A program made the translations under genes and the position numbers. DNA of 64,000 nt from a virus (Duplodnaviria; Heunggongvirae; Uroviricota; Caudoviricetes). Location of the stretch: IMG/VR virus record IMGVR_UViG_2617270980_000003; one strand, given 5' to 3'. Within the stretch, counting starts at the first letter, position 1; every line of letters starts with the position of its first letter. Of the stretch, positions 1 through 24,049 are shown piece by piece. The notes beneath the pieces were generated by a model. It ran no database searches. It was not told the DNA's origin and saw only the letters and a program-made list of their open reading frames with translations.

Positions 1-304
1 GCACGTTTTCGGTGAACGCACTCTGGCCACACTGGAGCGTCTTCTGAGCCTGCTGTCGGCCTTTGAGGTCGTGGTATGGATGACGGATGGCTGGCCGCTG
101 TATGAATCACGCCTGAAGGGAAAGCTGCACGTTATCAGCAAGCGTTACACTCAGCGCATTGAGCGACATAATCTGAATCTGAGACAACATCTGGCAAGGC
201 TGGGACGGAAGTCGCTGTCGTTCTCAAAATCGGTGGAGCTGCATGACAAGGTCATCGGGCATTATCTGAACATAAAACACTATCAGTAAGTTGGAGTCAC
301 TACC
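1..304 (+). mobile_element. IS1 insertion sequence, partial (right end only; rest lies left of the window)
   Basis: Frame from base 2 reads [95 protein letters not shown], which matches the InsB C-terminus as recalled; IS1-type terminus ...GTTGGAGTCACTACC ends at ~304. Confidence 0.9.
2..289 (+). CDS. insB: IS1 transposase InsB, C-terminal fragment (5' end outside window)
   Basis: Open frame from window edge to TAA at 287-289; sequence identity to InsB C-terminus as recalled. Confidence 0.9.
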
Positions 305-502
305 CAGTAACTCCGGGTATGAACTGCGCAATACACCAGTCCGGTTATATACAGCCCAGACAGTTCTTTTTATTCTGGCAGCAATATCCTTAACCGGGGT
401 GGATGAATAAAGCGCAATCAGCAGCGCATCTTCTTCAGGTGTCCACGGACGGACATGAGCGGGGGCGCGACCTTTTAGTCCCATGGGTTGTAATTTCATC
501 AT
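305..502 (-). pseudogene. Mu-like early gene (HTH-like protein) truncated at its 3' end by IS1
   Basis: ORF 224..502 begins MMKLQPMGLKGRAPAHVRPWTPEEDALLIALYSSTPVKDIAARIKRTVWAVYNRTGVLRSSYPELLG and then runs into reverse-complemented IS1 terminus; native C-terminus lost. Confidence 0.5.
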
Positions 503-505
503 GCA

Positions 506-1021
506 TCACCCCCTGACTCGCTTTTCAGCAGCATAAAACTCATCAGACAGTATTTCGGTCATTTTCTGTTTTGCGGGTTTTACGCCGCACTGAAGGTAAA
601 TCACATCGTCAACGCAGAACCACTTCACAGGGCCAAACAGGATTGCCGAGAAATCAATACCCAACCAGAACAACAGCGCATCGGTTCTGGCATACGTGAC
701 GGGCGAATATTCACGCCACAGACTGTTCAGTTCATCAGAGGCAACACGCAGGGTTTTAGGGATACGTGATGTGCGCGGTGTGCAGCTCCAGCCATTCGAC
801 GCAGTCGGTTTTCGCCATAAGTCGCGATGAAAAGGATATTTGTCCTCCGTAAAACGCAGTCCCTTAAAGTAAAATCCACTGATACCGGATACAAATACCG
901 ACCGGCACGCAACATTCAGCACGGCCTCAAGGCGTTTTGCCTCATCCTTAACTTTCTGGCAGTCCTGCTGGTATTTTTGCCACGCAGCCAGCGCGGAAGG
1001 GTTTGATGTTTTAAAGAACAT
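506..1021 (-). CDS. hypothetical protein, Mu-like early region
   Basis: 171-aa ORF abutting neighbouring ORFs on the same strand; no recognised motif. Confidence 0.45.
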   Translation of the reverse strand: MFFKTSNPSALAAWQKYQQDCQKVKDEAKRLEAVLNVACRSVFVSGISGFYFKGLRFTEDKYPFHRDLWRKPTASNGWSCTPRTSRIPKTLRVASDELNSLWREYSPVTYARTDALLFWLGIDFSAILFGPVKWFCVDDVIYLQCGVKPAKQKMTEILSDEFYAAEKRVRG

Positions 1022-1554
1022 TACGCCACCTCCGCAGATATCCCGGCAGGCGCTGCTGTCCGGTCAACAATCAGGTAGCGCAGAACATGTTCAGTGATAT
1101 TCCAGCCGCTTAAACCGCAGATAATGACGCCCAGGCGTATGTCGATATACGCCATCACAAACTGGGGCACGCCTTCTTTCATGGCCTGCTCATCAACTTC
1201 AGCCACCACATAAACGGTTTCACAGGTCAGAACGCCCTGAGCAAATTCCCACGCCATCGACGGAATATCATGCCCCTCAATCCATGGCAGGGATTTTCTG
1301 AAGCCGCACCACTGAACATCATCAGCCGCAGATTCCTGGCTGCATTTGCGACGAACCGGCTGCACCGGGCGGGGGCGCGGAATATCATAAAAACCGTTAC
1401 ATTCCGTCAGCACGCCTGCATCAACCGCATCACGCAGAAAATAAACCATGGAGGATGGCGGCATATTCATTTTTTCAGCCAGTACACCGCAGGTCAGGCG
1501 GCCATAAATACACAGCCAGTTTTTAACCCCTTCAAGCACTTTTGCATCAATCAT
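1021..1554 (-). CDS. hypothetical protein, Mu-like early region
   Basis: 177-aa ORF immediately downstream of gam, same strand; no recognised motif. Confidence 0.45.
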   Translation of the reverse strand: MIDAKVLEGVKNWLCIYGRLTCGVLAEKMNMPPSSMVYFLRDAVDAGVLTECNGFYDIPRPRPVQPVRRKCSQESAADDVQWCGFRKSLPWIEGHDIPSMAWEFAQGVLTCETVYVVAEVDEQAMKEGVPQFVMAYIDIRLGVIICGLSGWNITEHVLRYLIVDRTAAPAGISAEVA

Positions 1555-1699
1555 GATTTATTTCCCCACCACATTATTAATGACGATATAAACGTATTTC
1601 ATATTTCTTAACCCTTATTTTCTGTTTTCAGGCGCAAGCAGTCCCCTGACGCGAGCGCCATAATTAAAATGAAGTGATATTTAATTGATTAATGTGGTG

Positions 1700-2230
1700 T
1701 TATTTATTCAGTCCGGCGTCCTGTTCAAAAGGCTCGACATAAAAACTTTCAGCGCCTTTATTCACCTTGATACCGGCAATGCCTTTCACAGCATCCGGCT
1801 CCGCCAGGACGGCTTCCTTGTTCACTTCCTCTTTCGTGCGGATGAAACGCTCAAGCCCCATACGGCGCAGCATTTCAATCACACCTTCCACATCACGGCT
1901 GACGCTGCATGATGGCGTTCCCAGCCGCCATGACACCGTTCCGGTGGTCAGATTGGCTGTTTTGGTTTTGCCGCCGTTCGTCAGCTCATCACGGTTGGTT
2001 TTGCACCAGTCCTGAATCCCTTTAAAAAGCACTTTGATTTGCTTTTTAAGATTTTCAATCTGCGGCGTATAACGGGCGGTGATTTCTGCCACTTCGTCAT
2101 TCATCGCCGTTTCCAGGCGCAGCGCCTCTCGCTGAATATCTCCCAGGGTGCGGATATCACGGCTGACTTCTTCCCGGGTCTGCGGTGCCGCCTCGGCTGC
2201 GGCCTTTAATTTTGTAACGCGTTTAGCCAT
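1700..2230 (-). CDS. gam: Gam-like host-nuclease inhibitor (Mu Gam / Ku-like DNA-end binding protein)
   Basis: 176 aa; MAKRVTKLKAAAEAAPQTREEV...LRLETAMNDEVAEI...CKTNRDELTNGGKTKTANLTTGTVSWR...FIRTKEEVNKEA closely parallels Mu Gam as recalled; same length class. Confidence 0.85.
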   Translation of the reverse strand: MAKRVTKLKAAAEAAPQTREEVSRDIRTLGDIQREALRLETAMNDEVAEITARYTPQIENLKKQIKVLFKGIQDWCKTNRDELTNGGKTKTANLTTGTVSWRLGTPSCSVSRDVEGVIEMLRRMGLERFIRTKEEVNKEAVLAEPDAVKGIAGIKVNKGAESFYVEPFEQDAGLNK

Positions 2231-2241
2231 TTTGTTTTTCC

Positions 2242-2562
2242 TTATTGCAGTGTGCCTGATGCTTTATGCACGCGGTGGCGTTTAATGATGGCATCCGCTC
2301 CAAAAGACTGTGCAGATGCCTGAAATTCCGCTGAGAGAAACTGAATAATTGCAGGACTGTGATACTGGAGAATACTTGCATAAACGTCACAGAGTGACGT
2401 CGGCCTGTTATCCGTATCACGTTCTGTTTTCACATCCACTCCAATCTTTTCATGCACTTCAACACAGTCATTGCCTGCCAACTTTTCGTCATGCGAAACA
2501 TGATTAAATTCAAAAATAACGCGTACTTTGCTCATGGAATTACCCCTGTTGATTAAATTCAT
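2242..2562 (-). CDS. hypothetical small protein (paralogue of 2540..2812)
   Basis: Begins MSKVRVIFEF..., similar N-terminus to adjacent ORF MSKVVRIIFEY...; tandem pair in Mu-like semi-essential early region. Confidence 0.45.
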   Translation of the reverse strand: MNLINRGNSMSKVRVIFEFNHVSHDEKLAGNDCVEVHEKIGVDVKTERDTDNRPTSLCDVYASILQYHSPAIIQFLSAEFQASAQSFGADAIIKRHRVHKASGTLQ

Positions 2563-2812
2563 TACCGTTAATAACCCCGGAAGCCATGCCTCTGTCTTTC
2601 ATGAATGCACTGGCTTTCATTGCCACAAACTCTGCGAAGTTTCTGCTTTCTGCCAGCATAACCACCCCAAAAATCATGGCGGGTCCATTATCTTTCTTCT
2701 TTATTCCGGTTGAACGTATATCCAGACTTACCCCTCTGTGCGTGCTGCCATCAGAGTTTTTGCAGATAACATCTTCCTTGTATTCGAAAATAATGCGTAC
2801 GACTTTACTCAT
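2540..2812 (-). CDS. hypothetical small protein (paralogue of 2242..2562)
   Basis: 90-aa ORF, N-terminus MSKVVRIIFEYKEDV; position between B and gam. Confidence 0.45.
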   Translation of the reverse strand: MSKVVRIIFEYKEDVICKNSDGSTHRGVSLDIRSTGIKKKDNGPAMIFGVVMLAESRNFAEFVAMKASAFMKDRGMASGVINGNEFNQQG

Positions 2813-3090
2813 CCTCTGGTCCTCGTTCTGTTTGGATAACTGACCCGGCGTCTAACCTCACGGCAGAACCGAATCATGGCATTAAAGGCTTCTTCCTCCG
2901 TCACCGCTTCCGGTATCCCCGGAACCAGTAACTGCTCCTGTTCATCACGTCCATGACGCGCCATAACCTCAATCACATGCCGTACCGTGGCAGGCTTTCC
3001 GGCAACTATCGGCAATGCACCTTCCGGCAGGACGTAACCAAACTCAATAAGACCACTCGACCACGCCCATGCAATGAGATTTTTTTTCAC
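2809..3090 (-). CDS. hypothetical protein, Mu-like early region
   Basis: 93-aa ORF, stop/start overlap with neighbours. Confidence 0.4.
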   Translation of the reverse strand: MKKNLIAWAWSSGLIEFGYVLPEGALPIVAGKPATVRHVIEVMARHGRDEQEQLLVPGIPEAVTEEEAFNAMIRFCREVRRRVSYPNRTRTRG

Positions 3091-3091
3091 C

Positions 3092-3358
3092 TCACACCTC
3101 CCAGTAAACCGTGCAGCCGCTGATGCGGGTGGCCTTCACACGGCGGCGCAGGCCGTTGGTCTGTATGGTGATTTCAATTTCACCGGTTCCCTGCACGTTG
3201 CCTACCGGCGGCGTGGTTTTCAGTGCAAAACGTTGCGGATAGCGCTTACTGCGTTCCAGTACCGCACCGGCAAGTTCGGTCAGACGGCGCGCGCTGTTCA
3301 GGGAGTCGAATAAATTCATTTTGTTACCGCAGGATTGCATATTCATATAACACCTCAT
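3092..3358 (-). CDS. hypothetical protein, Mu-like early region
   Basis: 88-aa ORF in tight array downstream of B. Confidence 0.4.
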   Translation of the reverse strand: MRCYMNMQSCGNKMNLFDSLNSARRLTELAGAVLERSKRYPQRFALKTTPPVGNVQGTGEIEITIQTNGLRRRVKATRISGCTVYWEV

Positions 3359-3586
3359 TTAGCTGACTTGTTTCGCACCAACAGAACGGCATATTCCGCT
3401 GTAAACTTCTGTCGCACCTTCGCGATCAAGTCCGGCAGATATCACCATTCGTGTGCGGTCATTAAATTCAAAAAGTAAATCGCCACATTCTTTATTTTCG
3501 GCCAGTGAAATCACCTTCACGTTATCGAAATTAACCAGGTAAAAGCGTCCGTAAATATCAGGAATATTAAATACCGCCATAATCAC
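3359..3586 (-). CDS. hypothetical protein, Mu-like early region (kil position)
   Basis: 75-aa ORF overlapping the stop of B by 4 nt; position corresponds to kil in Mu, but no sequence evidence. Confidence 0.4.
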   Translation of the reverse strand: MIMAVFNIPDIYGRFYLVNFDNVKVISLAENKECGDLLFEFNDRTRMVISAGLDREGATEVYSGICRSVGAKQVS

Positions 3587-4524
3587 ACCTGTGAGAGTAA
3601 TTCAGGGTTGGTATAAACCTCTTTAAAGGCCGCATTAATATGTTTTTCTGTCAGCGCCGCGCCTTCACCGCTGGCGGTGAGCCACGCCTGGTTAAGCGTA
3701 TGTGTCAGAACGCGTAACGCTCCCGGCTTTTCAGCGATAGCCTGCATGACGGCCAGCTCGGCCTCACCACTGATCCCCCACGCCATGGCAATGGCCAGCA
3801 CATCCGCCTTTTTGGCCTTGCGAAGTTGTTTTGTACGGGCAAGACGGCTGAACAGGCGCGATAAATCACCAAAGGCGCGGCGTCCACCTTTAAACAATCC
3901 GCGCGGGTTACCAATAAGCACCATCCCGATCCCCGTGGCGTCCTGAATTGCCCGGAGTTGCTCCAGACCGTCAATACCAAGATGATCCGCCTCATCCACA
4001 ATCACCAGTCCACGCGTTCCCATCAGGCGACGGCGGATGGCGCGGGATAATGCCCCTTTGTTCGCGCGGGTGTAATCAATCCCCAGCGCATCGGCCAGCT
4101 CCAGCAGACACTCCGTGACGCTGGAGTGCGCGGGTGACAGGGTGATCATCCAGGTGTTTGGTTGCTCCTGGCAGTAATTACGGGCAGTGGCCGTTTTACC
4201 CACACCCGGTACGCCCACAATAACGTTAATACAGCCCATCAGGCGAACCGCCTGAAACAGTGCGCGCAGCTCCTGGACTGTCTGAGTTTCCACAAACTGC
4301 GGCGGTTCCGGCAGTGCGCTTTGTTTATTCCAGTTCTCATACCAGGAGCGCAGGGAAGCAGCCACAGCAGCGTTATCGCCTTTATATTTTCCCTTACGGA
4401 AAGCCGATAATGTGCCGTCGGAAATTCCCGCCTCTCTGGCGATGGCATACTGCGTCAGTACGCCGCCATCAATAAGTTCATCAATGGTCTTGATTACATC
4501 GTTAATATCGGTCATATTATTCAC
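3583..4524 (-). CDS. Mu B-like transposition target-DNA activator (AAA+ ATPase)
   Basis: 313 aa; Walker A GVPGVGKTATARNY, Walker B LVIVDEADHL; ...LPEPPQFVETQTV... and C-terminal ...KPGALRVLTHTL... parallel Mu B as recalled. Confidence 0.9.
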   Translation of the reverse strand: MNNMTDINDVIKTIDELIDGGVLTQYAIAREAGISDGTLSAFRKGKYKGDNAAVAASLRSWYENWNKQSALPEPPQFVETQTVQELRALFQAVRLMGCINVIVGVPGVGKTATARNYCQEQPNTWMITLSPAHSSVTECLLELADALGIDYTRANKGALSRAIRRRLMGTRGLVIVDEADHLGIDGLEQLRAIQDATGIGMVLIGNPRGLFKGGRRAFGDLSRLFSRLARTKQLRKAKKADVLAIAMAWGISGEAELAVMQAIAEKPGALRVLTHTLNQAWLTASGEGAALTEKHINAAFKEVYTNPELLSQV

Positions 4525-4597
4525 CTCGCTTGAGACAGCATTCTCCGAGACTGAAACCTCAAATAACCTGAGTCACCCCTCGGGTTATTTTTTTATT

Positions 4598-6685
4598 TCA
4601 GGCCAGCGGATCACTTTCTTTTAATTTCGCTTCGAGCAGTTGCAATCCCCGCTGGAAATTACGCTCGTATTCTTCATCAGGTTCATCGTCAGCGACCGGT
4701 TGCTGAACGGTCACCGTATTACCCACAGGGCGGTATATGTTTTCCAGCCAGGGCTCCTGCGGCTTGTGCTCCAGCACGTTGACAACCTCATCCTCGGCAT
4801 CACGGATTTTTTCCTCTGCGCGTTTACGCATGCCTTTAAGGCGCTGCTGCTGTTTGTAGTATTCCGCGCTGACAGGGAAGGCTTCGCGTTTATTGCCGTC
4901 CCATACCGCCTCGCAAATCACGCTGCCATCCGGGCGGCGCACGGTAATTCGTTCGGCATCATGAATGTCATAGCTGATAAGTACCTTACGGCCATGCTCG
5001 TCACGCAGCTCGGGCGCGTAGTAAATATTATTCAGCCAGCGTATTTCACAGCGTCTTACAGGGCGCTCCACCATCGGCCGGAACATATCCCGCAGTTCAA
5101 CATCGGACAGCCATTCAATTTCCGTGTCCTCTTCCGCCAGGCGTTTTTTTCTGAACTCCGCCGGGCTGTAATGTTTACCGTTCGGCTTCATGGGTAATTC
5201 ATCGTGCGGCCGGTTGTTGTACCACTCAACACCGTCACGAATGGCATCAATCAGTTCAGACCAGGACGGTAAATCACGCATCGCTGACTGCTGCCGGGCG
5301 TTCAGCCGTTTGCCCTGTTGCAGGGCACTGAATGCCGAGCGTAAATCGCGGTTGGTTTTACGTAACGTCTCGCGATCTGCTCCTTTCCCGAAATAGGTGC
5401 GGTATTTACGGGCTATGCGCATCGGTAATGTGCGGTTAAGCCGTTCGATAATGCCCCGTCCCTGCGGATTACCGGCAATCCCTGTCGGGTGATTAATCCC
5501 CAGTCGTGGCAGTATCCCCACAATCTCCTTATCCAGGACGTCGGCGGTTTCCCCGGAGCCATTATCCGAGTAATACAGAAACGGTTTGCCATGATGGCGA
5601 ATACCGTGCTGTATGGCACCGGCTACGGCGAAAACATTTTCAGCCAGGTCAAGGCTCCAGCCCACCACAAAGCGCGTGCCACCGTCGATAACAAAGGTCA
5701 CTTCCGGTGCGAATGGCCGCCCGTGAACCGGGTGCGCGCATTTCAGCTTCATGCCGTGACCGTCACCAATCCAGACATAATTCACCGGCATTTTTGACCA
5801 GTCGCGGCGCGTGAATCCCTCAAGCTGGCGGTATTCACTGCCGGTAACCCGTCCTTTTTGTTTCACCACTTCCGGCAGTTTCTTCATTGCGCGGCGAATG
5901 GTGTCATAAGACGGCATGATATCGAGCATATAAGGCTCATCAGCGTGCCGGTGCTGCCATTCGGCAACAAAATCCTCGTAAGCCTCGGTCATTGGTCGGC
6001 CGTTTGACTGGCGATACTGCGCCAGAAATTCGGGCAACCAGTTAATATCTTCGGCTTTTATTTCCTGGCGTTTACCTGGTGCCAGCAAAAGCAGGCGTTC
6101 AGCAGCGTTCTGTGCCTTATTAAAGGCCGCAATCCAGCGTTTCAGCGTGATTTCACTCAACACGCGACTGTTTCCCTTTCTGGCGTTCGCTATCTCAACC
6201 ATTGCCACAATGCGCTCATCCAGTTGCGAGTGTGACAGGCGGTCAACGATGAACCGGATAGCTTTAGCGCAGCTGAAACCGGGTTGTTGCGTGAATTTCA
6301 GCACCTCACTGACGATCGCAATGCGTGCGTCTGCCACCTGGCGCTGGTTTTCAGTCAGGGCATTGAGGCGTTCGACCATCAGTTGTGGTGATCCGCGATA
6401 TGCCTCCACCGCATCAACCACGGCAGACGAGCGTCTGGCCTTTGTCACCACCGGAGCCGGTGATTCATCGGCTTTTTGCGTCATCAGTTGCAGGGCATAA
6501 CGTTCGCGTAATGCCTGCTGTGTCACTTCAGGTAAACAGTCAATGCTGTATTCAAAACCTTTAGCGCCTTTCTTGCGGCGTCTGCTGGTTTCGCTGGTTG
6601 CATACTTCCTGATTGAATAGCGAACGCCTTGCTCCGTTCCCGGCATCCCCGGTAATCCAACCAGTTCTTTGACTGAAGCAAACAT
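4598..6685 (-). CDS. Mu A-like DDE transposase
   Basis: 695 aa; WIGDGH motif in DDE core, ...GSVICEAVWDG... region and acidic C-terminal tail resemble MuA architecture; sits between ner and B. Confidence 0.9.
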   Translation of the reverse strand: MFASVKELVGLPGMPGTEQGVRYSIRKYATSETSRRRKKGAKGFEYSIDCLPEVTQQALRERYALQLMTQKADESPAPVVTKARRSSAVVDAVEAYRGSPQLMVERLNALTENQRQVADARIAIVSEVLKFTQQPGFSCAKAIRFIVDRLSHSQLDERIVAMVEIANARKGNSRVLSEITLKRWIAAFNKAQNAAERLLLLAPGKRQEIKAEDINWLPEFLAQYRQSNGRPMTEAYEDFVAEWQHRHADEPYMLDIMPSYDTIRRAMKKLPEVVKQKGRVTGSEYRQLEGFTRRDWSKMPVNYVWIGDGHGMKLKCAHPVHGRPFAPEVTFVIDGGTRFVVGWSLDLAENVFAVAGAIQHGIRHHGKPFLYYSDNGSGETADVLDKEIVGILPRLGINHPTGIAGNPQGRGIIERLNRTLPMRIARKYRTYFGKGADRETLRKTNRDLRSAFSALQQGKRLNARQQSAMRDLPSWSELIDAIRDGVEWYNNRPHDELPMKPNGKHYSPAEFRKKRLAEEDTEIEWLSDVELRDMFRPMVERPVRRCEIRWLNNIYYAPELRDEHGRKVLISYDIHDAERITVRRPDGSVICEAVWDGNKREAFPVSAEYYKQQQRLKGMRKRAEEKIRDAEDEVVNVLEHKPQEPWLENIYRPVGNTVTVQQPVADDEPDEEYERNFQRGLQLLEAKLKESDPLA

Positions 6686-6687
6686 AA

Positions 6688-6918
6688 TTACGCGACCTTA
6701 CGAATGTAGCGGCTGGGCCAAATCTCCTCGGGCGGCACCCCCAGGCATTCCGCGATAATCCCCTCATACTTGGGAACATGGCGGTATACCGCGTTGTACA
6801 GATTGTTCTGACCCACGCCAGCTTTACGGGCCAGCGCCCTCATGCTTCCTTCTCTGGCTCTGACTTCCCCCAAAATTCTTTGAGGATGCCAATCAGGCTT
6901 AACTTCATTTCTCGCCAT
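6688..6918 (-). CDS. ner: Ner-like DNA-binding regulator (Ner/Nlp family)
   Basis: 76 aa; ...DWHPQRILGEVRAREGSMRALARKAGVGQNNLYNAV...EIWPSRY matches the Ner/Nlp signature as recalled; immediately upstream of transposase. Confidence 0.8.
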   Translation of the reverse strand: MARNEVKPDWHPQRILGEVRAREGSMRALARKAGVGQNNLYNAVYRHVPKYEGIIAECLGVPPEEIWPSRYIRKVA

Positions 6919-6946
6919 GATTCATCTATCCTAAAAAGTTACGAAA

Positions 6947-6972
6947 TTTGATAACTAAACTTAGTTATCAAG
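6947..6972. promoter_or_regulatory. Operator-like palindrome in the divergent c/ner control region
   Basis: TTTGATAACTAAAC/TTAGTTATCAAG inverted repeat (perfect core GATAACTAA-ac-TTAGTTATC) ~30 bp upstream of ner start. Confidence 0.5.
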
Positions 6973-7102
6973 TTTGATATAAGTATTGATCCACCTCTGC
7001 TTCATGTAAAGCAAAAAAACATCTTTCTTTTGTCTATTGTGGATCAATGGTTGCTGACAACACTAAAAGTTAATAATTTCAAATTGATAGGAAGAAAAGA
7101 AA

Positions 7103-7648
7103 ATGAACAAGCAAACAACAACATCTCTTTCTTTTCCTGGTGGTAGAAAAGAAAGCATTGCTGAGCGTCTGAAAAGGCTGATTGGCTCCCGCAGCGTCAG
7201 AGCTGCAGCAAGAGATTGGGGGCTTTCATTTTCAACACTAAACAATTATCTGTCTCGTGGCACTGAGCCATCCTTAAGTGTCGCCCTTCAGATTGCGTCT
7301 ATCGAAGGAGTAAGTGTTGAGTGGCTATGTGGATTCAGTGATGCATCACAAGTGAATCGGTGTGAGATCAAGGAAAATCAAGATGAAAGCAAGAAGATAA
7401 TTATGACGATTATCAGCGCACTTGATGAAAAAGACTTAGAGCAGCTATCGAAAAATTTGGTTCTGAATGGAGCCAAGTACTTAGCTCGGTTGTTAGAGCC
7501 TGAAAATCAAGATCTAATCCGCTTAGAAGGAAGGAAAAGAATAGCTGCATTACAGCTTGAAGGTATGTCTGACGAACGCGTCAGAGAGATTTTGGAAGAA
7601 ACTGAGAGAAGTCGCAAATCTAACGCGGTAGAACCAAAAGCGGGTTAA
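7103..7648 (+). CDS. Phage repressor, HTH XRE family (c-repressor position of Mu-like phage)
   Basis: 181 aa; N-terminal HTH ...SIAERLKRLIGSRSVRAAARDWGLSFSTLNNYLSRGTEPSLSVALQIASIEGVSVEWLCGF; divergent from ner-A-B. Confidence 0.7.
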   Translation: MNKQTTTSLSFPGGRKESIAERLKRLIGSRSVRAAARDWGLSFSTLNNYLSRGTEPSLSVALQIASIEGVSVEWLCGFSDASQVNRCEIKENQDESKKIIMTIISALDEKDLEQLSKNLVLNGAKYLARLLEPENQDLIRLEGRKRIAALQLEGMSDERVREILEETERSRKSNAVEPKAG

Positions 7649-7720
7649 TAGCATTAGCCCGCATTTTGCACTATATCGAGTATTTCGCATTGTTTGGAAC
7701 GCCTTAAAAGACTAAAACCA

Positions 7721-7884
7721 CAGTATCAAATGAGTTGCCGATTTTATAATAAATGACTAATTATTGCACAATCGGTATCAAATAGACCTTATCCGCACAT
7801 CTAGCCATCACCTGTTTTATTTCAGTATCTTACAGGTGATTTCACCTCCTTTCACTAAAACCCTTGTCGGTATCAAATGATTCA
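7721..7884 (-). repeat. Mu-like prophage left terminus with three repeated putative transposase-binding sites
   Basis: Plus-strand motifs CAGTATCAAATGAG (7721), CGGTATCAAATAG (7773), CGGTATCAAATGA (7868); palindrome GGTGAAATCACC at ~7835; minus strand reads ...TGAATCATTTGATACCG starting at 7884. Confidence 0.55.
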
Positions 7885-9621
7885 CCTGGTTATAATACTC
7901 ACGCAGCGGAACAGGCGCTGGCGCAGCGTCGGCAGCTTCAGCCCCCACACGCTGTATCCGGCAACGCCGTCAGGAACACGGCTAACTTTCACCTTCACGC
8001 CGTCGGTGACGGACTGAACCTCCACGCTGACCGGATTGCCACTTCCGTCAACCAGGCTTATCAGCCTGGTGCCGGAGGATGGCAGCGTGATTTCACGGTC
8101 GAGCGTCAGCGTCCGGGTCTGGCTGTTTACCGCCAGCACGCGCCCGCCGATGCTGATACCGGCATAGTCATCATCACAGATTTCAATGACATCACCCGGC
8201 ACATGGCGAAGCCCTTCTGCGCCCACGCTGAAGTCCACGGTCTGCGTTTCCAGCAGTTCTGTTTTAATCAGCCACAGCCCGGCGCGGTGTGCCTGCCCCC
8301 GGCTGGTACAGCCAAAAGCATCCATCTTCGTGACGTTACGACCGTAACGGGCAATGGCCTGCGTATCCTCCACAAGCTCTGTTGCCGTCTCCCAGCCGTT
8401 GTTCGGGTCAATCCAGTTCACCTCAACGGCATTATGGCGGTCTTTCAGGGCGCTAAAGCTGTAGCGGAACGGCGCGCCATCATCCGGCATCACCACATTA
8501 CTGCGGTTATAGGTCCACACCTTATCCGACGGTCGGTCCTGCACGAACGTCAGCGTCTGCCCGTTCCATACCGGCATACAGCGCATCGCCGAGCAGAAAT
8601 CACTGAGCACATCCCACGCCTTGCGCTGTGTGGTCAGGTACGCATTACAGGTGATGCGCGGCTCCGTACCGCCAAAACCGTCCGGCACTGACTGGTCGCA
8701 GTACTGGCCGATGACATACAGCGCCCATTTATCCACATCCGCCACACCAAGACGTTTCCCCATGCCGTAGCGTGGATGGGTCAGCATATCCCACAGACAC
8801 CAGGCCATGTTATTGCTGTATGCTGGCTTAAACGTTCCGTCCCAGATACCGCTGTATTGCCGCGTCTGCGGGTTATAGTTCGACGGCACCTGCAGAATAC
8901 GCCCGCGCAGATGATAATTACGGCTCACCTGCTGGCTGCCGAACTGCTCCGAATCCACCTGCACGCCGACCAGTGCCGTGTTCGGGTAGCACTGTTTCAC
9001 ATCGATGATTTCGGTGTATGACGACCAGAGCGTTTTGTTCTGCAGCTGGTCTGTGGTGCTGTCCGGTGTCATCCTGCGCATCCGGATATTGAACGGGCGC
9101 GGCGGCAGGTTATCCACCACCACCGAGGCCAGATACTGCGACGTGGTTTTGCCCTTAATGGTGATGTCTTTTTCTGTCACCCAGCCACCGTTACGTTGTA
9201 TCTGAACCAGCAGGCGGACTTCCGACGGATTCCGGTCACCCTTTGAGGTGGTTTCCACCAGTGCCTGCACACCGAAGGTAAAGCGCAGACGGTCGATGTT
9301 TGCAGACGTGATGGTCCGGGTGATCGGCGTGTCGTATTTCACTTCCGTACCCAGCACCGTCTCGGAACCGGAGGATTCAAATCCCTCCGGCGGTGTCTGC
9401 TCCTGCTCACCTGCCCGGAACACCACCGTGACACCGGAGATGTTGGTATTCCCCTCACTGTCCAGCACCGGTGTACTGTTCAGCAGCACGCTTTTTAATC
9501 CATCCACCGGACCTTCAACCGGCCCTTCGCTGATGGCATCGATCACACTCAGTAACTGCGTGGATTTCAGGTTATCCTTCGCTTCGCGCGGGGTATGCCC
9601 CTTACTGCTGCCTTTACCCAT
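7882..9621 (-). pseudogene. J: Lambda J-like central tail fibre / host-specificity gene, 3'-truncated by the Mu-like insertion
   Basis: 579-aa ORF starting MGKGSSKGHTPREAKDNLKSTQLLSVIDAISEGP..., near-identical to lambda J N-terminus as recalled (J ~1130 aa); frame ends ...LRQRLFRCVSIITR* at the junction. Confidence 0.85.
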
Positions 9622-9680
9622 TCGTCATGCTCCATAAACGACAAAACCGCCCGGAGGCGGTTTCACATAAACGTTTTTCA

Positions 9681-10328
9681 TCAGCGACCAATCACCACAA
9701 CCTGACCACCATCCCCTTCGTCTGCCGTGCTGATCTCCTGAGAGACCACCCGCGACCCCACGCGCATTTCACCGTACAGAACGGGCAGAACATTGCCCTG
9801 GGCAACCATGTTATCCAGTGAGGAGAAATAGGTGTTCTGTTTGCCGTTATCTGTACTTGCTGCCGTGGGCGTCCTGGCTTTCGGTGCCAGCATCTGCGCC
9901 ACTCCGCCCAGGATCATACTGGCCCCTGCCGCATACATGCCCGATACAGCCGCGGCACCCAGCCAGCCCACAGGGTTCCACCATGCCACCGCAATCAGCG
10001 CCGCCCCCAGCACCACCTGAAACACACCGCCACTTTTAGCTCCCGCCAGACGCGGCACGATGTGGATCACGGCACCATTTGCCAGCGGCTCATTAAGACG
10101 GGCAGACAATTCGGTTTCACCTGCATCACGCCCGGCAATGCGTACCTGGTACCAGCCGTCGCTCAGTTTCTGACGAAACGCCGGGATCTGCATGGCCAGC
10201 GCCCGGATGGCTTCGGACCCCGTTTTCACTCGAAGGTCGATGCGGCGGCCAAATCGTTGTAAATCCCCGTAAAGGCAGATGCGTGCCATGCCCGGTGACG
10301 CCAGAGGGAGTGTGTGCGTCGCTGCCAT
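9681..10328 (-). CDS. I: Lambda I-like tail assembly protein
   Basis: 215 aa, lambda-order position between K and J; hydrophobic Gly/Ala-rich middle region. Confidence 0.8.
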   Translation of the reverse strand: MAATHTLPLASPGMARICLYGDLQRFGRRIDLRVKTGSEAIRALAMQIPAFRQKLSDGWYQVRIAGRDAGETELSARLNEPLANGAVIHIVPRLAGAKSGGVFQVVLGAALIAVAWWNPVGWLGAAAVSGMYAAGASMILGGVAQMLAPKARTPTAASTDNGKQNTYFSSLDNMVAQGNVLPVLYGEMRVGSRVVSQEISTADEGDGGQVVVIGR

Positions 10329-10978
10329 TTGTCGGTGTACCTCTCTCGTTTGCTCAGTTGTTCAGGAATATGGTGCAGCAGCTCGCCGTCACCACAGTAA
10401 ATGGCGGCATGATTCGGCACCGATGAACCAAAACAGCACAGCAGCACATCGCCCGGCTGCGCCGCTGACAACGGCACCTGATACAGCCCTGTGGCCTCCA
10501 GATTATCCAGATAGAGATTCTGACCGTTACGCCACCAGTCATCCTCGCGATGAAAATCCGGCATCTCAATCCCCGCCAGATGGTAAGCATCCCGGAACAG
10601 CGTGTAACAGTCCGTCACCCCGTGCTCAAAGCGCCGCCCGGAAAGATGTGGCACACAGCGGAACTTGTGAATCGCCCCCCGGCAAACCAGCCACCACGGC
10701 AAATCACTCTGCACCTGCAGCCGCCGGTCGGTCTCACTCAGCCAGGGCAGACCACCGGGGTGGCTGTGGACCAGCGCCACAATCTCACCCTGCATCTCTG
10801 CCCGCAGCCAGTCCTCCGGCGACATCCGGAAATACTCCTCCGGCTCACCGGAGATATTCACGCAGGGAAAATATCTTTCCCCCTCCGGTGTTCTCACCAC
10901 GAAGCCGCACGACTCCGCTGGCGCACATCGCCGGGCGTGCGCCAGAATCGCTGATTCTGTCTCTGTCATGGGATTCAC
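10226..10978 (-). CDS. K: Lambda K-like tail assembly protein (MPN/JAB + NlpC/P60-like)
   Basis: Contains ...IVALVHSHPGG... JAB-type motif; position between L and I. Track start probably too far upstream. Confidence 0.8.
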   Translation of the reverse strand: MNPMTETESAILAHARRCAPAESCGFVVRTPEGERYFPCVNISGEPEEYFRMSPEDWLRAEMQGEIVALVHSHPGGLPWLSETDRRLQVQSDLPWWLVCRGAIHKFRCVPHLSGRRFEHGVTDCYTLFRDAYHLAGIEMPDFHREDDWWRNGQNLYLDNLEATGLYQVPLSAAQPGDVLLCCFGSSVPNHAAIYCGDGELLHHIPEQLSKRERYTDKWQRRTHSLWRHRAWHASAFTGIYNDLAAASTFE

Positions 10979-11673
10979 TGCGAAAGTTTGTTAATGGAAA
11001 GGAAGCCGCCAAAGTTGCCGACGTTATTGCGAAACTTACAGCCGCTCAGGCATTTGCTGCATTTATCCTTCGTGATATCGGAGGTCGGCTGGTCATATTC
11101 ATCCGCGACCGCCGGACCGTGATAACCGCACTCATCACCGCGATAGGTCCAGGTGCAGGTATTAGCCAGCATGATGCGCCCCGGAAAAACAGCGCCGTCC
11201 GTTTCCGTCGGCGTGGACAGTACAAAAGAGGCACTCACCGCGCTCAGTTCGCTGCACTGCTCGATGCGCCAGCGGCTGATCACCTCCTGCTCCGGATCGG
11301 CGTCACTGTTTCCGTTGACGAAGTTCACCGCATCCAGAAAACGGGCGTAAACCTTACGCCGGACCACCGTTCCTCCGACCAGACTCTGCAGGTCTTCCGC
11401 CATCCCGGTGACCATGCCGTGCAGGTTAGAAACCGTCAGTGTCGGACGGGCAGCACTGCCTTTGCCGTTCAGTTCAAATCCCGTCCCCTGAATGGGATAC
11501 GCCTGATACTGTCGCCTCTGCCAGGTGACCGGCTCACCTTTATCGTTCTGCTCATTACAGAAAAAATAACGTTCTCCACCGACCACTGTCAGATCGATTT
11601 CCCAGAGCACCACCTGGGCTGACTGAGTGAGGAGTGTCGTCTCATGATGTGTTTCCTGTGGAATATCCTGCAT
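10975..11673 (-). CDS. L: Lambda L-like minor tail protein
   Basis: 232 aa; Cys-rich C-terminus; position between M and K. Confidence 0.8.
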   Translation of the reverse strand: MQDIPQETHHETTLLTQSAQVVLWEIDLTVVGGERYFFCNEQNDKGEPVTWQRRQYQAYPIQGTGFELNGKGSAARPTLTVSNLHGMVTGMAEDLQSLVGGTVVRRKVYARFLDAVNFVNGNSDADPEQEVISRWRIEQCSELSAVSASFVLSTPTETDGAVFPGRIMLANTCTWTYRGDECGYHGPAVADEYDQPTSDITKDKCSKCLSGCKFRNNVGNFGGFLSINKLSQ

Positions 11674-11682
11674 CAGAGACTC

Positions 11683-12012
11683 CTATGCCACGACCTGTTC
11701 AAAATCTGCCGTTATGGTTACCCACAACGCCCCCACGCTTGCCGACCATTTACGACAAACCACCCTGATCGGCTTCCAGTCATAAGGTGGCGTCCACTGA
11801 AATGCGCGGACGCCACCGTGCCGTTCCAGAAAGGCTTTTAAAGATGGGTGTTCACATTTACGAACACGTATCGTCACGCTGTAAATCGACAACTGGTTAT
11901 TCAGTCCCGCCGCACGACGCTGTTCATAACCATCGCCCAGCTTCACTGTCACCACTTTCGGCTCTGATACCACATTCATATCCGGGCGCACTTTCCAGTG
12001 AAACGTCTCCAT
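11683..12012 (-). CDS. M: Lambda M-like minor tail protein
   Basis: 109 aa, follows tape measure gene. Confidence 0.75.
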   Translation of the reverse strand: METFHWKVRPDMNVVSEPKVVTVKLGDGYEQRRAAGLNNQLSIYSVTIRVRKCEHPSLKAFLERHGGVRAFQWTPPYDWKPIRVVCRKWSASVGALWVTITADFEQVVA

Positions 12013-15000
12013 TACCGATATGCTCCACTTAACCGACCACCATCACGGGCCTGCTGTTGCATAAAGTCCGCTGCCGCTTTTTTCCCAAGGTCATAAACCA
12101 CCTTCAGGGCAGCCGGACCTATCTGCCCGTTCGTGCCATCGTTATTGATCTCGATGTTGTACTGCGGGGCAAACATCGCCATACCTGAACCACCAATATC
12201 CGCCACAACCCCCAGCTTACCGTCAGCACCACGACGCAGTGGCAGAATGGCTTCAGGTCCAGCTTCCCCCATCACACCCGCGCCTTTTGCAAAAGCAAAA
12301 AACGTCGGACGGTTAACCACCGTGCCACTGTAACGACTCAAATCAGCAGACTGATAAATCCCCCCATTGGCATTCAGGGAAAGGCTGCTGAGATCAAATC
12401 CCAGTACACTGCCAATCCCTTTTATCGATTTCATCATGGTTGCCTGCGCCAGGATTTTCGCCATATCTGACAGCACCGAAGAGGTGAAGGATTTGAAGTT
12501 GAGTTTGCCGGTAGTGACAAAAGTTGCCAGGCCATTTCCCATGTTGCTGAAGGCTGATGAGAACCCCTGTTCTGCTGTTCCTGCCGTATTGTCTGCATCC
12601 ACGGTAAAATCCTGAAATGCACGCAGGACTCCGTTTTTCCAGTTACCCTGCACAACTTCAAGCTGTTGCCAGTAACGGCGATTCTCATTCAGTTGTCGGT
12701 TCAGGCTCTCCGTCAGCGCCTGCTCGGCCTTTCTGTAGTCATCCGTGTTATATGTCCCTTTCTGCTCACTATCCCGCCTCAACTGCTCCAGCTGTTGCTG
12801 GTATTTCTGGCGAAGACTCAGTTGTACCTGATATCGCTGCCGCTGCTGATCACCCATACCCACCGTGGCGATATCCAGGTCATGTTGCTGACGCTGAGCG
12901 CGCTCTTCTTCAGCCAGTTGACTGGTCAGCTGAATTGTTTTTTTCTTCAGATCGTTGAGTGCCGTTTGTTTCTGAAGCTCCTGCTGTTTTACATCCAGCA
13001 GCGTCAGTGCCTGAATCAGTTCATCTTTACGGGCCAGCACACTCTTTTCATCTGCCGTCAGTTTTTTCCCGTCCAGATCGCTGATGCGCTGCTGCAGAGC
13101 CAGAAGCTGTTTATGCGCTTCTGTCATCTTTTCAGTGGCAATGCCTGCTGACTGTCTTGCAGCAGCAATCTGTCCTTCCACCTGTGCCTGTTGCTGACTG
13201 TACTGCAGCAATAACCGGGTGGCCTCATCATTACGGGTTTCGCGTGTTTTTTTCTTACCGGATGCCAGGGCTTTCTCGTAACGTTCATTTTCACGTTGTA
13301 TCGCCGCATCCCTGACAGCCTGGTCGGCGTACTGCATGGCATTAATACGCGCAATTTCACGCTGATGTCGTGCTGCTTCCGTTTCATTCATCCGGTTCAG
13401 TGCAGCATTTTCAGCATTACGTCGTTTCTGTTGCTCCTGATAATTCCGCTCTGCCTGCTCTTTTGCATCCTGCAAATCCTTCTGGCGTTTTTTCTCCTGA
13501 AGATCGTTAAGACGCTGCTGATCGTATTCAACCTGAGAAGATGATGCCGTCCAGGGGAGTCTTTTCGCCCGCGACACTTTCTCCTGTAAAGCGGTAATCT
13601 GTTCATCCAGCGAGTCTTCACGACCAATATTCATGGCCGCATCCCAGAAACGACTCCACAAATCAGACAGATACTTCAGCGTACTGCCAAGCGCATTGAG
13701 GTTATTATCAATATCCGCAGTACGCCGACCGGTTTCCTCTGCCAGTGCAGACATGGCTATCCGTGCAGCATCACTGGACCGTCCCTGATCCCCAAGGACA
13801 CGTATCTGCTCAAGCTGAGTGGCAGTAAGAAAATGCAGCTCATTGTCCAGAGCCTTCGCGGCATTTACAGGATCATCCTTCAGCCGCTTAAACTGATTTA
13901 TGGTATCGCTGACCGACTGGCCAACCGATCGCTCCATCTGTGCGGCAGCTCTCGCCACCATACCGATATCGTTTCCACGAAATGCACCACTCCCCACCAC
14001 CTGCGCCAACGCACCGGCTGCAGCATGTTGCGTGATACCATTCCCGGAAATAGCACGACTGAGCGTCCACAGCTGCCCGGCAGTGACTCCGGCATAATGC
14101 CCCGTCAGCGACAACTGGCGGTTAAATTCTTCCCCCTCCTTCTGACCGTCATACCAGGCTTTACCCAGACCATAGACGGCCGCGGCAATACCGCCAATAA
14201 CCCCGCCAAGCATCATGCCTTTCGGTGACATCAGTGTGTCTATCCATCCGGCACGGTTAGCCAGCGTTATCCCGGATCCCCTCAGCGCCCCTAAATTGCC
14301 GCGGGCCAGTTCACCTATCAGAACGCCTATCTCCTGGCGGGCTGCTGCACTTTTCAGACCCAGCGAATGCGTGGCTTTTCCTGCCTGCTCCATTTTGCGG
14401 ATATACACTTCTGCAGCACTGCTTACCCCCAGCTGGGCTGCCTTGGCACGAAGCAACTCAGAAGATGAAAGATTCTGGCGGGTTGCCTGCTCTTTAAGCT
14501 GACGGATAAACGCCACTTTCTGTCGGGTAGCCTCTTCCTCAGCCTGTGTAAGAACACGGGTTTTCGCAGTAACCTCAGAAATCAGCGCCAGATAATCCTG
14601 CTGACCAATCCCGCCACTGTTTCTGGCCTGTCGGATCTGCTGCTGAATACGCTGTAATTCCTGCAGCCCCGCACTGGCCTGTTTCACACTGTCAATCTGA
14701 CGATAAAACGCAGCAGCCGCTTTATCCTGAGCCTCCGCCAGAGCCATGGCCTGCGCCTGTTCCTCGCGCATTTTCTGGCTCAGCGCCTCCATGCGCTGGC
14801 GGGTTTTCTCCACCTCGCGGGCCATGCGTTCATGAGCCTGTGCGTTCTTCTCCACCGTCTGCGCATGGACGGATGCGGCTGTTGCAGCCGAAGAAGCCGC
14901 CTGCGTTGTCTGCCGGGCGGCCTGAGTCTGACGCTCCATAAAACGCTGCATACGGGCAGAAGACCGTTCTGCATCGCTGGCTGCACCATTCAGAAGGTTT

Positions 15001-15107
15001 TTGATACGGGGAATTTCATTTTTAAACTCTGCCGCATCAATCCCCAAATCAATGACCAGGTTGGCTATCTGGTCCATAACGCACACCTCCGGAAATACCT
15101 TCCCCAA
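12012..15107 (-). CDS. H: Tail tape measure protein (lambda H-like)
   Basis: 1031 aa, coiled-coil/Gln-Ala-rich repeats; downstream of G/T. Confidence 0.85.
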   Translation of the reverse strand: MGKVFPEVCVMDQIANLVIDLGIDAAEFKNEIPRIKNLLNGAASDAERSSARMQRFMERQTQAARQTTQAASSAATAASVHAQTVEKNAQAHERMAREVEKTRQRMEALSQKMREEQAQAMALAEAQDKAAAAFYRQIDSVKQASAGLQELQRIQQQIRQARNSGGIGQQDYLALISEVTAKTRVLTQAEEEATRQKVAFIRQLKEQATRQNLSSSELLRAKAAQLGVSSAAEVYIRKMEQAGKATHSLGLKSAAARQEIGVLIGELARGNLGALRGSGITLANRAGWIDTLMSPKGMMLGGVIGGIAAAVYGLGKAWYDGQKEGEEFNRQLSLTGHYAGVTAGQLWTLSRAISGNGITQHAAAGALAQVVGSGAFRGNDIGMVARAAAQMERSVGQSVSDTINQFKRLKDDPVNAAKALDNELHFLTATQLEQIRVLGDQGRSSDAARIAMSALAEETGRRTADIDNNLNALGSTLKYLSDLWSRFWDAAMNIGREDSLDEQITALQEKVSRAKRLPWTASSSQVEYDQQRLNDLQEKKRQKDLQDAKEQAERNYQEQQKRRNAENAALNRMNETEAARHQREIARINAMQYADQAVRDAAIQRENERYEKALASGKKKTRETRNDEATRLLLQYSQQQAQVEGQIAAARQSAGIATEKMTEAHKQLLALQQRISDLDGKKLTADEKSVLARKDELIQALTLLDVKQQELQKQTALNDLKKKTIQLTSQLAEEERAQRQQHDLDIATVGMGDQQRQRYQVQLSLRQKYQQQLEQLRRDSEQKGTYNTDDYRKAEQALTESLNRQLNENRRYWQQLEVVQGNWKNGVLRAFQDFTVDADNTAGTAEQGFSSAFSNMGNGLATFVTTGKLNFKSFTSSVLSDMAKILAQATMMKSIKGIGSVLGFDLSSLSLNANGGIYQSADLSRYSGTVVNRPTFFAFAKGAGVMGEAGPEAILPLRRGADGKLGVVADIGGSGMAMFAPQYNIEINNDGTNGQIGPAALKVVYDLGKKAAADFMQQQARDGGRLSGAYR

Positions 15108-15378
15108 GATGCATCAGTTCTTCGTCCGTTCGCTCCGGTATCCCGTTCTCTTCCGGTAAAAGGCTGAAATCAGCCACCGCAGCATCACTGCTGCCGGACA
15201 CCATTCTCACGATCAATGCCTTCAGCGAGGCAAACTGCGCATCCATCCACACATCACTGAAGCTCTGCATCCGGAAATAATCGCCCCACTCACCAAGCTC
15301 AGTGGCCGACATTTCCGACAGCATCCGCCGCCAGTCTGCCCGCCTGAACTCCCGGGCAAGCCGCATGACAAACTGCAT
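15049..15378 (-). CDS. T: T-frame segment of tail assembly chaperone G-T (expressed by -1 frameshift from G)
   Basis: ORF in -1 frame relative to G, beginning just after G stop; conserved lambda G/GT arrangement. Confidence 0.65.
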   Translation of the reverse strand: MQFVMRLAREFRRADWRRMLSEMSATELGEWGDYFRMQSFSDVWMDAQFASLKALIVRMVSGSSDAAVADFSLLPEENGIPERTDEELMHLGEGISGGVRYGPDSQPGH

Positions 15379-15386
15379 TTCCCGCG

Positions 15387-15815
15387 TCAGGACTTTTCCG
15401 GCGTCAGCACCTCATGCTCCAAATCCCCGGCATTCTCAATGGCTCCCATACCGCTCAGCGACAGAACCATCTCCGCCCCCGCTCCCAGGGCATCATACGA
15501 CCATGTTGTAATAACGGATGCGCAAAGCGTCTCAACATCCTGAGACTGTTCCGCATTCCACAGTGAGCGGGAAACCAGCCAGGCATTGATATCCATCCCC
15601 ATCCGTAGAAAAGCAATCTGTCGTTCAGCCTCCGGCAGTTCTCCCTCTTCGGCATCAAACTTTGCCGCTCGCTGCTGAACAAACGCCAGATATTCAATTC
15701 TCTGCAGCCCGGACAGCTCACTGAGCACCACGGACTGCTTTTCATAATTAAACGTGCCCTGTTTCAGAAACATCATGTTCTCCACCTGCAAAAAAGCCCC
15801 GGATAACCGGGGCAA
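15387..15815 (-). CDS. G: Tail assembly chaperone G
   Basis: 142 aa (lambda G 140 aa), between V and T/H. Confidence 0.8.
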   Translation of the reverse strand: MPRLSGAFLQVENMMFLKQGTFNYEKQSVVLSELSGLQRIEYLAFVQQRAAKFDAEEGELPEAERQIAFLRMGMDINAWLVSRSLWNAEQSQDVETLCASVITTWSYDALGAGAEMVLSLSGMGAIENAGDLEHEVLTPEKS

Positions 15816-15833
15816 ATGATGAGTATCGTCCTG

Positions 15834-16523
15834 TTAACCTGCGGCGCTGACAGCCACCGTAGCCACTGCCACAAAATCGCCGTCAGAAGTCATGCCCACA
15901 ATGCTGACACTGCCCTGCTTCACGCCTTTCACCGTGGCCACAAGCCCGTTCAGGGTCACCGTGGCAGTCTGTGGATCTGTCGAATGCACACTGATCGCTT
16001 TGTCACTGGCTCCGTCAGGTTTTACTGTAAAGGTCAGCGTGGTGGTTGCTCCCACTTTTACACTGGCAGATGCCGGTGCCACCGTCAGCCCGGTAACGCC
16101 CACGATTTCAGTGCCTTCCTCTGCCAGATACGGACGCCCCACACCGCTGATTTTCACTGTGCGGGTCATCACGTCTTTTGAGGCAATGGTTTTACCCAGT
16201 GAACTCAGCCAGCCACGGAAAACATCAACAGTACCGTTGGGATATTTGATACGAAAAGCGCAGACTTCACCGGAGTCGAACAACTGAACCAGTTTTTTCT
16301 GCCCGCTGTCCCCCGGACGCCAGGCCAGCGTCGCCGAAGTATCACCGACTGATTTCTGCCCCTGGGTTGTCGTTTTCCAGTCTGCATTTTCATCATCGAG
16401 ATAAGTGTCATCTTCTGCATCAGCGGTCATTTCGCCAGGTTGCAGATCCTTCACCATCGCAAGACGCAGCCAGTCAGTGTCCGATAAAGGGTTCGCAAAC
16501 GCATCGCCCTTGCCGGTATACAT
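15834..16523 (-). CDS. V: Major tail protein V-like
   Basis: 229 aa; ...ANPLSD.DW.RLA.VKDL.PGE... and ...YKIRFPNGTVDVFRGW.SS.GK... match lambda V as recalled. Confidence 0.85.
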   Translation of the reverse strand: MYTGKGDAFANPLSDTDWLRLAMVKDLQPGEMTADAEDDTYLDDENADWKTTTQGQKSVGDTSATLAWRPGDSGQKKLVQLFDSGEVCAFRIKYPNGTVDVFRGWLSSLGKTIASKDVMTRTVKISGVGRPYLAEEGTEIVGVTGLTVAPASASVKVGATTTLTFTVKPDGASDKAISVHSTDPQTATVTLNGLVATVKGVKQGSVSIVGMTSDGDFVAVATVAVSAAG

Positions 16524-16586
16524 CCAGAACGTCGTTCCCGCACCTTTCGTTTTTGCCAGTGGATTTGGTGTGTCATTACCACCTCC

Positions 16587-17000
16587 TTAATTCGTGTACG
16601 TGATCTGGTACGTGATTTCCGCCATCGCCCAGGTGGCCATCTCATTATCACGTTGATAGTTAAAACCGAGTGGGATCAGGGTGTCGATGAGTCCGGAAAG
16701 TGCTGGTACATCATTCAGGGCCGGGAAAATGGTGCTCTCCATCCACATATCCAGCTCTGAATCCGGTGCCTGTGCCCGGATGAAGACAGCAATATGCAGA
16801 ACAGCCTGCCAGTCATCTTCATCCGTCATTTTTCCGGTGTACTGAGCATCACTCAGCCACACCGCCACGGCAGGCAGTTCCTGCGCATCAACAAATGCCG
16901 GAAGCCCGTCAAAAAACGTGGCGCTGTCTCCACACTGTTCCCGAAGGCGTGCCAGTACGACCTGGCGGATTTGTGTATGTCGGTTCATCGGGTCAGCCAT
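16587..17000 (-). CDS. U: Tail terminator U-like
   Basis: 137 aa; ...ATFFDG.PA.FD...PAVAV.L....YTG... resembles lambda U as recalled. Confidence 0.8.
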   Translation of the reverse strand: MADPMNRHTQIRQVVLARLREQCGDSATFFDGLPAFVDAQELPAVAVWLSDAQYTGKMTDEDDWQAVLHIAVFIRAQAPDSELDMWMESTIFPALNDVPALSGLIDTLIPLGFNYQRDNEMATWAMAEITYQITYTN

Positions 17001-17563
17001 AACCTCAGTTGTTGTTTCAGTGCATACCCCAGCTGTTTCGGCATTTCCGCAGCAATGATGCGGTCGCGGGCATCTTCAAATGTCTGTGTCAGCGGTCCGG
17101 ACAGCGGGATTTTCACCACATCAATGGGGTAACGATTTTTGCCATCAATACGCCGCATCACATGCCAGCGACCATTCGCCAGTTGCTGAATAAACGCATC
17201 CCGGAAAAGATATTTACCCACCTTCAGCACACTGCCACGGTACTGCAGTTTTCCACCACGCCGGGCCAGTCTGACCCGGGCTGTCCCCAGCTTAATGGCA
17301 GGCAGATTGCCCCGGTTAACGCGGATCCTGGCCGTCATTTTTCCTGACGGACTGGCTTTAAACACCCGGACACGCTGACGTACCAGTTTCAGGGGGATCC
17401 CTTTCACCTGGTTATCTCCCGCAACGGTATTCCCGGCAACCTGCCGGGTGGCAACCGAGACCGCTTTCTGTGCCACACGGTTTATCGCCCATGCGCTGGC
17501 CTGTGGCACCATACGGGTATCAAGGCTGTTCAGATTGCGGATGGCATTCTCAAGCCCCTTCAT
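16985..17563 (-). CDS. Z: Tail completion protein Z-like
   Basis: 192 aa; ...NGRWHVM.R..GKNRYPIDVVKIP...LGYAL.QQLR... matches lambda Z as recalled. Confidence 0.8.
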   Translation of the reverse strand: MKGLENAIRNLNSLDTRMVPQASAWAINRVAQKAVSVATRQVAGNTVAGDNQVKGIPLKLVRQRVRVFKASPSGKMTARIRVNRGNLPAIKLGTARVRLARRGGKLQYRGSVLKVGKYLFRDAFIQQLANGRWHVMRRIDGKNRYPIDVVKIPLSGPLTQTFEDARDRIIAAEMPKQLGYALKQQLRLWLTR

Positions 17564-17574
17564 CCCACACCTCT

Positions 17575-17850
17575 TTACTCAATAAAGATCATTGGCTTAC
17601 CGTTAAAGCGTTCATGCCGTGTGACCGTCCATTGTTGTCCGTCATAAACAACGCGATCACCGCGCCGTGGGCGGTATCCCGAAGAAAACACCACCAGAGA
17701 GACCGCAGGTCCGGACAGAGCATTCAGCTCTGCCAGTGTTTCTCCCGGGATCACAGTCATATCGACATCATTAATCGAGGCTGTCTTTCCCATCTTTCTG
17801 ACCGTGATAGCATCCATACGCGCTGCCAGCCGGGAAAAGGGATCAGACAT
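17575..17850 (-). CDS. Head-tail joining protein (FII position), hypothetical
   Basis: 91-aa ORF between capsid-associated gene and Z; assignment by position only. Confidence 0.45.
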   Translation of the reverse strand: MSDPFSRLAARMDAITVRKMGKTASINDVDMTVIPGETLAELNALSGPAVSLVVFSSGYRPRRGDRVVYDGQQWTVTRHERFNGKPMIFIE

Positions 17851-18211: not shown

Positions 18212-18231
18212 AAAAAGCCCTTACGGGCCAT
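18212..18231 (-). terminator. Putative rho-independent terminator after the capsid gene
   Basis: Minus strand reads GGCCCGTAAGGGC followed by TTTTTTT. Confidence 0.45.
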
Positions 18232-24041: not shown

Positions 24042-24049
24042 TATTCCTC

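Follow-up and report, generated by a model that had tools for sequence, protein, structure and literature searches.

The DNA analysed here is a stretch of 64,000 nt (hereafter the window), whose position 1 is position 1 of contig JNMX01000022.1 (66,644 bp; assembly GCA_000700685.1) of Escherichia coli 3-475-03_S4_C2. On its minus strand, at 7882..9621, it carries an ORF of 579 codons plus TGA with an ATG start, which we identified as a truncated form of J, the gene for the tip attachment protein or central tail fibre, and which is referred to below as J'. The product has been deposited as KDU56818.1, 'phage tail family protein', and the exact protein was found on this one contig only. By BLASTP, lambda gpJ (1132 aa; NP_040600, encoded by NC_001416 15505..18903) aligned to it without gaps, residues 1-576 to residues 1-576, with 566 of 576 positions identical (98%, E=0). 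The nearest complete gene is that of E. coli NCTC9088 (1131 aa), whose product was identical to J' at all 576 residues; at the DNA level the two agreed at 1724 of 1727 nt (99.8%), all three differences being synonymous, whilst lambda J agreed at 1661 of 1727. Judged from these alignments, a chance match of J' to J can be regarded as excluded. As near-identical J genes encode 1131-1137 aa, and J' spans 579/1131 or 51% of the full protein, the first-pass annotation was right in describing a lambda-type J that matches from its first residue but has ~51% of the usual length; its coordinates and start were likewise correct, the strand being our addition. The alignment to lambda J that it had recommended bore this out, with the two proteins collinear from Met1 up to residue 576 and the C-terminal remainder absent.

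The position of J' is that expected for gpJ, at the end of a tail operon and after the genes H-M-L-K-I, so that it shares with lambda the upstream neighbours I, K, L, M and H. It also has the same hub Pfam families, FNIII-A_GpJ (residues 86-207) and Phage-tail_3 (residues 330-497). Within the ORF, two parts of different origin can be distinguished by megablast and junction alignment. The J-derived DNA (7895..9621, minus strand, 1727 nt) covers codons 1-575 and 2 nt of codon 576, and encodes hub domains only. The remaining 13 nt (7882..7894, minus strand) belong to the left end of a Mu-like prophage and are read by the J' frame as the third base of Ile576 followed by Ile-Thr-Arg and the stop codon.

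The lambdoid tail genes I, K, L, M, H (tape measure), T, G, V, U and Z lie at 9681..17563 on the minus strand. In a protein-by-protein comparison with an uninterrupted relative, the prophage of ETEC6335, the products of I, K, L, M, H, T, G, U and Z, as well as those of the head, portal and terminase genes, were gap-free and 99-100% identical. The exception is V (major tail tube; 15834..16576, minus strand), in which, by comparison with ETEC6335, 1 nt has been deleted immediately past the start codon at 16576..16574 (16571..16576, minus strand; ATGACCACACC in place of which the window has ATGACACACC). The deletion could be placed near 16571-16573, and the frame opened by the ATG reaches a stop after 41 codons; the next start in the V frame is an internal ATG at 16523, 18 codons in, which gives 229 aa vs 247. 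This could be either a real pseudogenization or an indel of the draft assembly. The impression that the upstream tail genes look intact thus holds for nine of them and fails for V, which is frameshifted.

Over 7894..26277 the window is 99.6% identical to ETEC6335, where ydfK/pinQ/tfaQ border the prophage on one side and gnsB/ynfN/cspI/rzpQ/rrrQ/essD/relBE on the other. These, together with hokD, are gene names of Qin (Kim), the cryptic prophage of E. coli K-12, to which the lambdoid prophage is related as a more complete version. Homology to ETEC6335 breaks off at 26277 and resumes at 58303. The intervening DNA (26278..58302, ~32 kb) is a P2-like prophage located between ynfN and ynfQ/cspI and 96-98% identical to E. 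coli ES1; its tyrosine integrase is encoded at 57209..58222. The att core resembles a terminator, reads AAAAAAGCTCCCGAAGGAGCCTTC in the empty site, and was found as imperfect copies at both junctions. As a consequence of its position, the P2-like prophage places the terminase, head and tail genes apart from the lysis cassette and from any late promoter upstream of that cassette. Past the P21-type holin (61008..61307), the window holds genes for an AraC-family regulator (YdeO/GadX-like, 240 aa) and a 2-thiouracil-desulfurase/DUF1722 protein (319 aa) at 61414-63493; the corresponding place in ETEC6335 is occupied by cspB/cspF and a Q-like antiterminator. The window yielded no homologue of the ydfT/ydfU (Q-like) type.

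On the other side of J', the region 305..7894 (minus strand) comes from a Mu-like prophage of the Sp18 type, of which it forms the left (early) arm. It encodes a c-type repressor of the HTH_3/XRE kind (181 aa; 7103..7648, plus strand), diverging from which are genes for a ner-like HTH_35 regulator (76 aa; 6688..6918, minus strand), a MuA-type DDE transposase of 695 aa in which Pfam recognized HTH_Tnp_Mu_1 and Mu-transpos_C (4598..6685, minus strand), a MuB-type AAA+ target-DNA activator with Phage-MuB_C (3583..4524, minus strand), and the host-nuclease inhibitor Gam (176 aa; 1700..2230, minus strand); kil is also present. The early genes and their order (c, ner, A, B, kil, gam) are the same as in other Sp18-type prophages, namely Sp18 of O157:H7 Sakai and the copies in CC119 STEC. 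Close to the left end, no more than 175 bp from it, are three repeats of TTTGATACYG (7721..7877, minus strand), a motif that has four matches in the window, three of them at this end, vs 0.22 expected. The motif is also repeated at the right end of a relative in HH35, and by inference these repeats are probably transposase-binding sites of the attL type.

The relative in HH35, an intact Mu-like prophage of 38.6 kb, interrupts a diguanylate-cyclase gene, and its left arm is 99.6% identical to 305..7894; Mu-like prophages of O157:H7 and other STEC are 93-95% identical to the same region. Beside the presumed right end of the HH35 prophage, the expected 5-bp target duplication (CGTAG) was not found (L004, E. 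coli HH35, 2080-2200 and 40740-40800). In contrast to other Sp18-type prophages, only the left 7.6 kb are visible here, cut by an IS1, and the left end in this sub-lineage terminates in TA rather than CA. The IS1 portion (1..304, plus strand) comprises its 3' part, i.e. the insB end and the terminal inverted repeat; it matched IS1 at 98-99% identity over 1..304/305, with 304 nt visible and the sequence ending in …GGAGTCACTACC. The boundary at 304/305 falls within a SANT/Myb-like gene, and a 92-aa ORF at 224..502 is the 5' part of this DNA-binding gene, reading into IS1. The Mu-like phage may therefore be interrupted or truncated at IS1. The source contig stops inside this repeat; beyond window position 1 there could follow the remainder of the Mu-like phage as well as the distal half of J, accompanied by lom and stf.

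The point at which J homology is lost was the same throughout: in megablast searches of phages and 5426 complete E. coli genomes, homology to J ended at window position 7895 in every match, including J of phage 434 and others, which matched the J' region at 97% and stopped there as well. In a three-way alignment of the window with NCTC9088 J and lambda J, identity extended up to …CGCTGCGTGAGTAT, beyond which J continues with CCGTGAGAACGAC… and the window with TATAACCAGGTGAATCATTTGATACCGAC…. The J' frame crosses the junction as …GTG AGT AT/T ATA ACC AGG TGA, translated as …CVSI/ITR. The opposite side of the junction was defined independently by aligning the left ends of six insertions of this element, situated in J (the present case), dgcE (HH35), xdhA (CI5), csiR (JNE141411) and two different rhs genes (JE86-ST05 and O157 Z1825). 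These are unrelated sites in different genomes, and the sequence was common to all six exactly to the nucleotide corresponding to 7894, with unrelated flanks beyond. As the break in J thus falls on the terminal nucleotide of an element whose flanks are otherwise unrelated, it has the signature of real transposition and not that of a point mutation or of sequences mis-joined at random. The same J'/Mu-like junction was present in none of the 5426 complete E. coli genomes and in none of 50,697 phage records.

The terminal dinucleotide at the left end (7893-7894) was TA (…GGTTATA) in four separately located copies and CA (…GGTTACA) in two. The copy in the window belongs to the former type, and so deviates at this end from the terminal 5'-TG…CA-3' that is a feature of Mu-like phages. 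The TA-ended variant is evidently still able to transpose.

The length of the ORF by itself would also fit a naturally short, hub-only homologue of J, or a J shortened by a nonsense mutation or frameshift, and the first-pass annotation had named full-length homologues of ~580 aa in related phages as the observation that would speak against a truncation. A phmmer search of 1.84 billion cluster representatives returned 7909 homologues. Among the best 150 of these, the distant homologues (41-78% identity) that matched residues 1 to ~576 were all at least 803 aa in length (803-2593 aa), whilst the short entries were fragments 95-100% identical to the query; we noted one 566-aa representative of 50% identity (P0055), which may or may not be complete. 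The search thus gave no evidence of a natural hub-only J. As the DNA at the junction, past codon 576, is Mu-like and not that of J, the question is in any case moot, and we attach virtually no probability to either form of this explanation; a natural or point-mutated short J was ruled out by the junction alignment.

A second possibility is that the junction is an artefact of assembly, in which J from one prophage was joined to an unrelated Mu-like prophage. The source is indeed a draft short-read assembly, the junction is known from one draft contig, and J is often fragmented in drafts: the 90%-identity cluster that includes J' has 16,895 members, most of which, among those listed, are labelled 'partial'. 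J is thus a frequent point of contig breakage in E. coli drafts, and truncated J calls are therefore unreliable unless the junction itself is inspected. Inspection in this instance argues strongly against a chimera, in that the break lies on the exact terminal nucleotide of the element, the junction alignment revealed no repeat common to J and the Mu-like end that would be able to mislead an assembler, and the same contig is recorded for three samples. As such, we consider a mis-assembly very unlikely.

We therefore regard it as highly probable that J was truncated when a Mu-like phage of the Sp18 type integrated by transposition into its codon 576. The target was an ordinary lambda-type J of the Qin-like lambdoid prophage in E. 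coli 3-475-03_S4_C2, and the incoming element would have been a temperate phage transposing to essentially random sites, which on entering codon 576 would have placed its left (repressor) end beside the 5' part of J. From there the J frame extends over 13 nt of the Mu-like end, gaining Ile-Thr-Arg before a TGA. If this was a simple transposition with a 5-bp duplication, the duplicated sequence is predicted to be AGTAT (J sense strand), and the right end of the Mu-like prophage would be followed by the remaining, 3' part of J, the other junction then consisting of that right end followed by AGTATCCGTGAGAACGAC…. Because J' differs from NCTC9088 J by three synonymous substitutions only and has no sign of decay, the insertion is a recent one. 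The earlier description, in which the 5' half of J adjoined a Mu-like element and IS1, can accordingly be retained, with the amendment that the gene ends through a precise insertion at 7894/7895 and not through a stop mutation.

Insertion of this kind has precedent. Mu-like (Sp18-like) phages at variable sites have been documented (PMC10132054; PMC7430833), and in closed CC119 STEC genomes six of ten Mu-like phages were inserted in mobile elements, several of them in Stx phages (PMC10132054). Furthermore, GenBank records of Stx phages include the annotation 'region of the inserted Bacteriophage Mu-like phage'. Sp18-type prophages therefore resemble the present one also in having variable, gene-disrupting insertion sites that include lambdoid prophages. 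As a type of event, the insertion of Mu-like phages into lambdoid prophages is already known; the junction described here is itself unique.

The first-pass annotation had proposed that the distal half of J be sought beyond the Mu-like element and IS1, and we were able to follow this up within the window. A tblastn search of the 64 kb with full-length J matched residues 1-576 only, so that no J beyond residue 576 was found in it. When residues 577-1131 of NCTC9088 J were used as a query, at least 8000 matches were obtained; the 120 listed were 655-969 aa in length, most of the named ones being designated 'partial', and none of these 120 was the distal fragment of ~540-560 aa expected for this strain. 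IS1 and Mu both generate adjacent deletions. It is conceivable, if rather doubtful, that the insertion was followed by an IS1- or Mu-caused deletion or rearrangement through which the 3' half of J (with lom, stf and tfa) was lost and not simply displaced by ~38 kb. The absence of distal J from the window and the interruption of the Mu-like prophage by IS1 would both fit such a course; however, a contig that ends inside IS1 is the normal short-read outcome of a simple IS1 insertion, and no specific sign of a deletion was seen.

Whichever course was taken after the insertion of the Mu-like phage, the part of J that remains is roughly the hub, as judged from its predicted domains. In gpJ, as determined by cryo-EM, the hub domains are followed by a linker, FNIII-1/2, an alpha-helical shaft, the central straight fibre and the receptor-binding domain, and the C-terminal parts bind LamB and hold the tip closed (PMC11101478); structures of the lambda tail tip are available as PDB 8IYK, 8K35 and 8XCG. 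Four further Pfam families were detected in full-length J, namely Ig_J (610-714), Ig_J_second (716-818), Phage_Tail_Tip (846-972) and the receptor-binding Ig_GpJ_C (1001-1131). The FNIII/Ig pair that follows the hub (Ig_J and Ig_J_second) is absent from the 579-aa J', as are the central straight fibre (Phage_Tail_Tip) and the C-terminal receptor-binding domain (Ig_GpJ_C). In comparison with lambda gpJ, J' thus lacks residues 577-1132, including the LamB-binding domain, and carries in their place three foreign C-terminal residues (ITR). Its product, if made at all, would be limited to the N-terminal hub domains of gpJ; devoid of FNIII-1/2, shaft, straight fibre and receptor-binding domain, it would therefore be unable to bind a receptor or to close or trigger the tail tip. 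On this domain content, no functional tip attachment protein can be expected to come from the J' locus, and J' is best viewed as a gene fragment of a gpJ family member and not as a functional member of that family. The statement in the first-pass annotation that the prophage is defective for host recognition agrees with the loss of the receptor-binding part; it understates the damage, which is wider, the late region being split by the P2-like prophage.

The fragment is thus presumably functionless. The alternative, to which we give only a very slight chance, is that J' has stayed free of mutations because it is kept for a function, either as a dominant-negative or decoy subunit by which superinfecting or co-resident lambdoid phages would be prevented from assembling proper tail tips, or as a recombination substrate for hub swaps. 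Were this true, a decoy J' would target lambdoid phages sharing the same J hub, and a recombination substrate would let incoming phages exchange hub modules.

With respect to annotation, the correct label for this locus is a pseudogene of J (5' fragment), split by a Mu-like prophage, in place of 'phage tail family protein'. Beyond this the importance of the finding is small, as the interruption of J is an ordinary and documented form of prophage decay. E. coli lambdoid prophages decay through insertions, and the present one resembles Qin and, in E. coli O157, the 'defective prophage pool' (PMC2669165) in having done so by the insertion of other mobile elements; it differs from them in that head and tail genes remain, the damage consisting of two other prophages and a frameshift and not of large deletions. 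The region therefore offers an example of nested decay, in which a lambdoid prophage has been disrupted by two other phages, one Mu-like and one P2-like, and by a frameshift, whilst the Mu-like phage has in turn been broken by IS1. For prophage-prediction tools, this means that an intact-looking run of tail genes does not imply an inducible phage.
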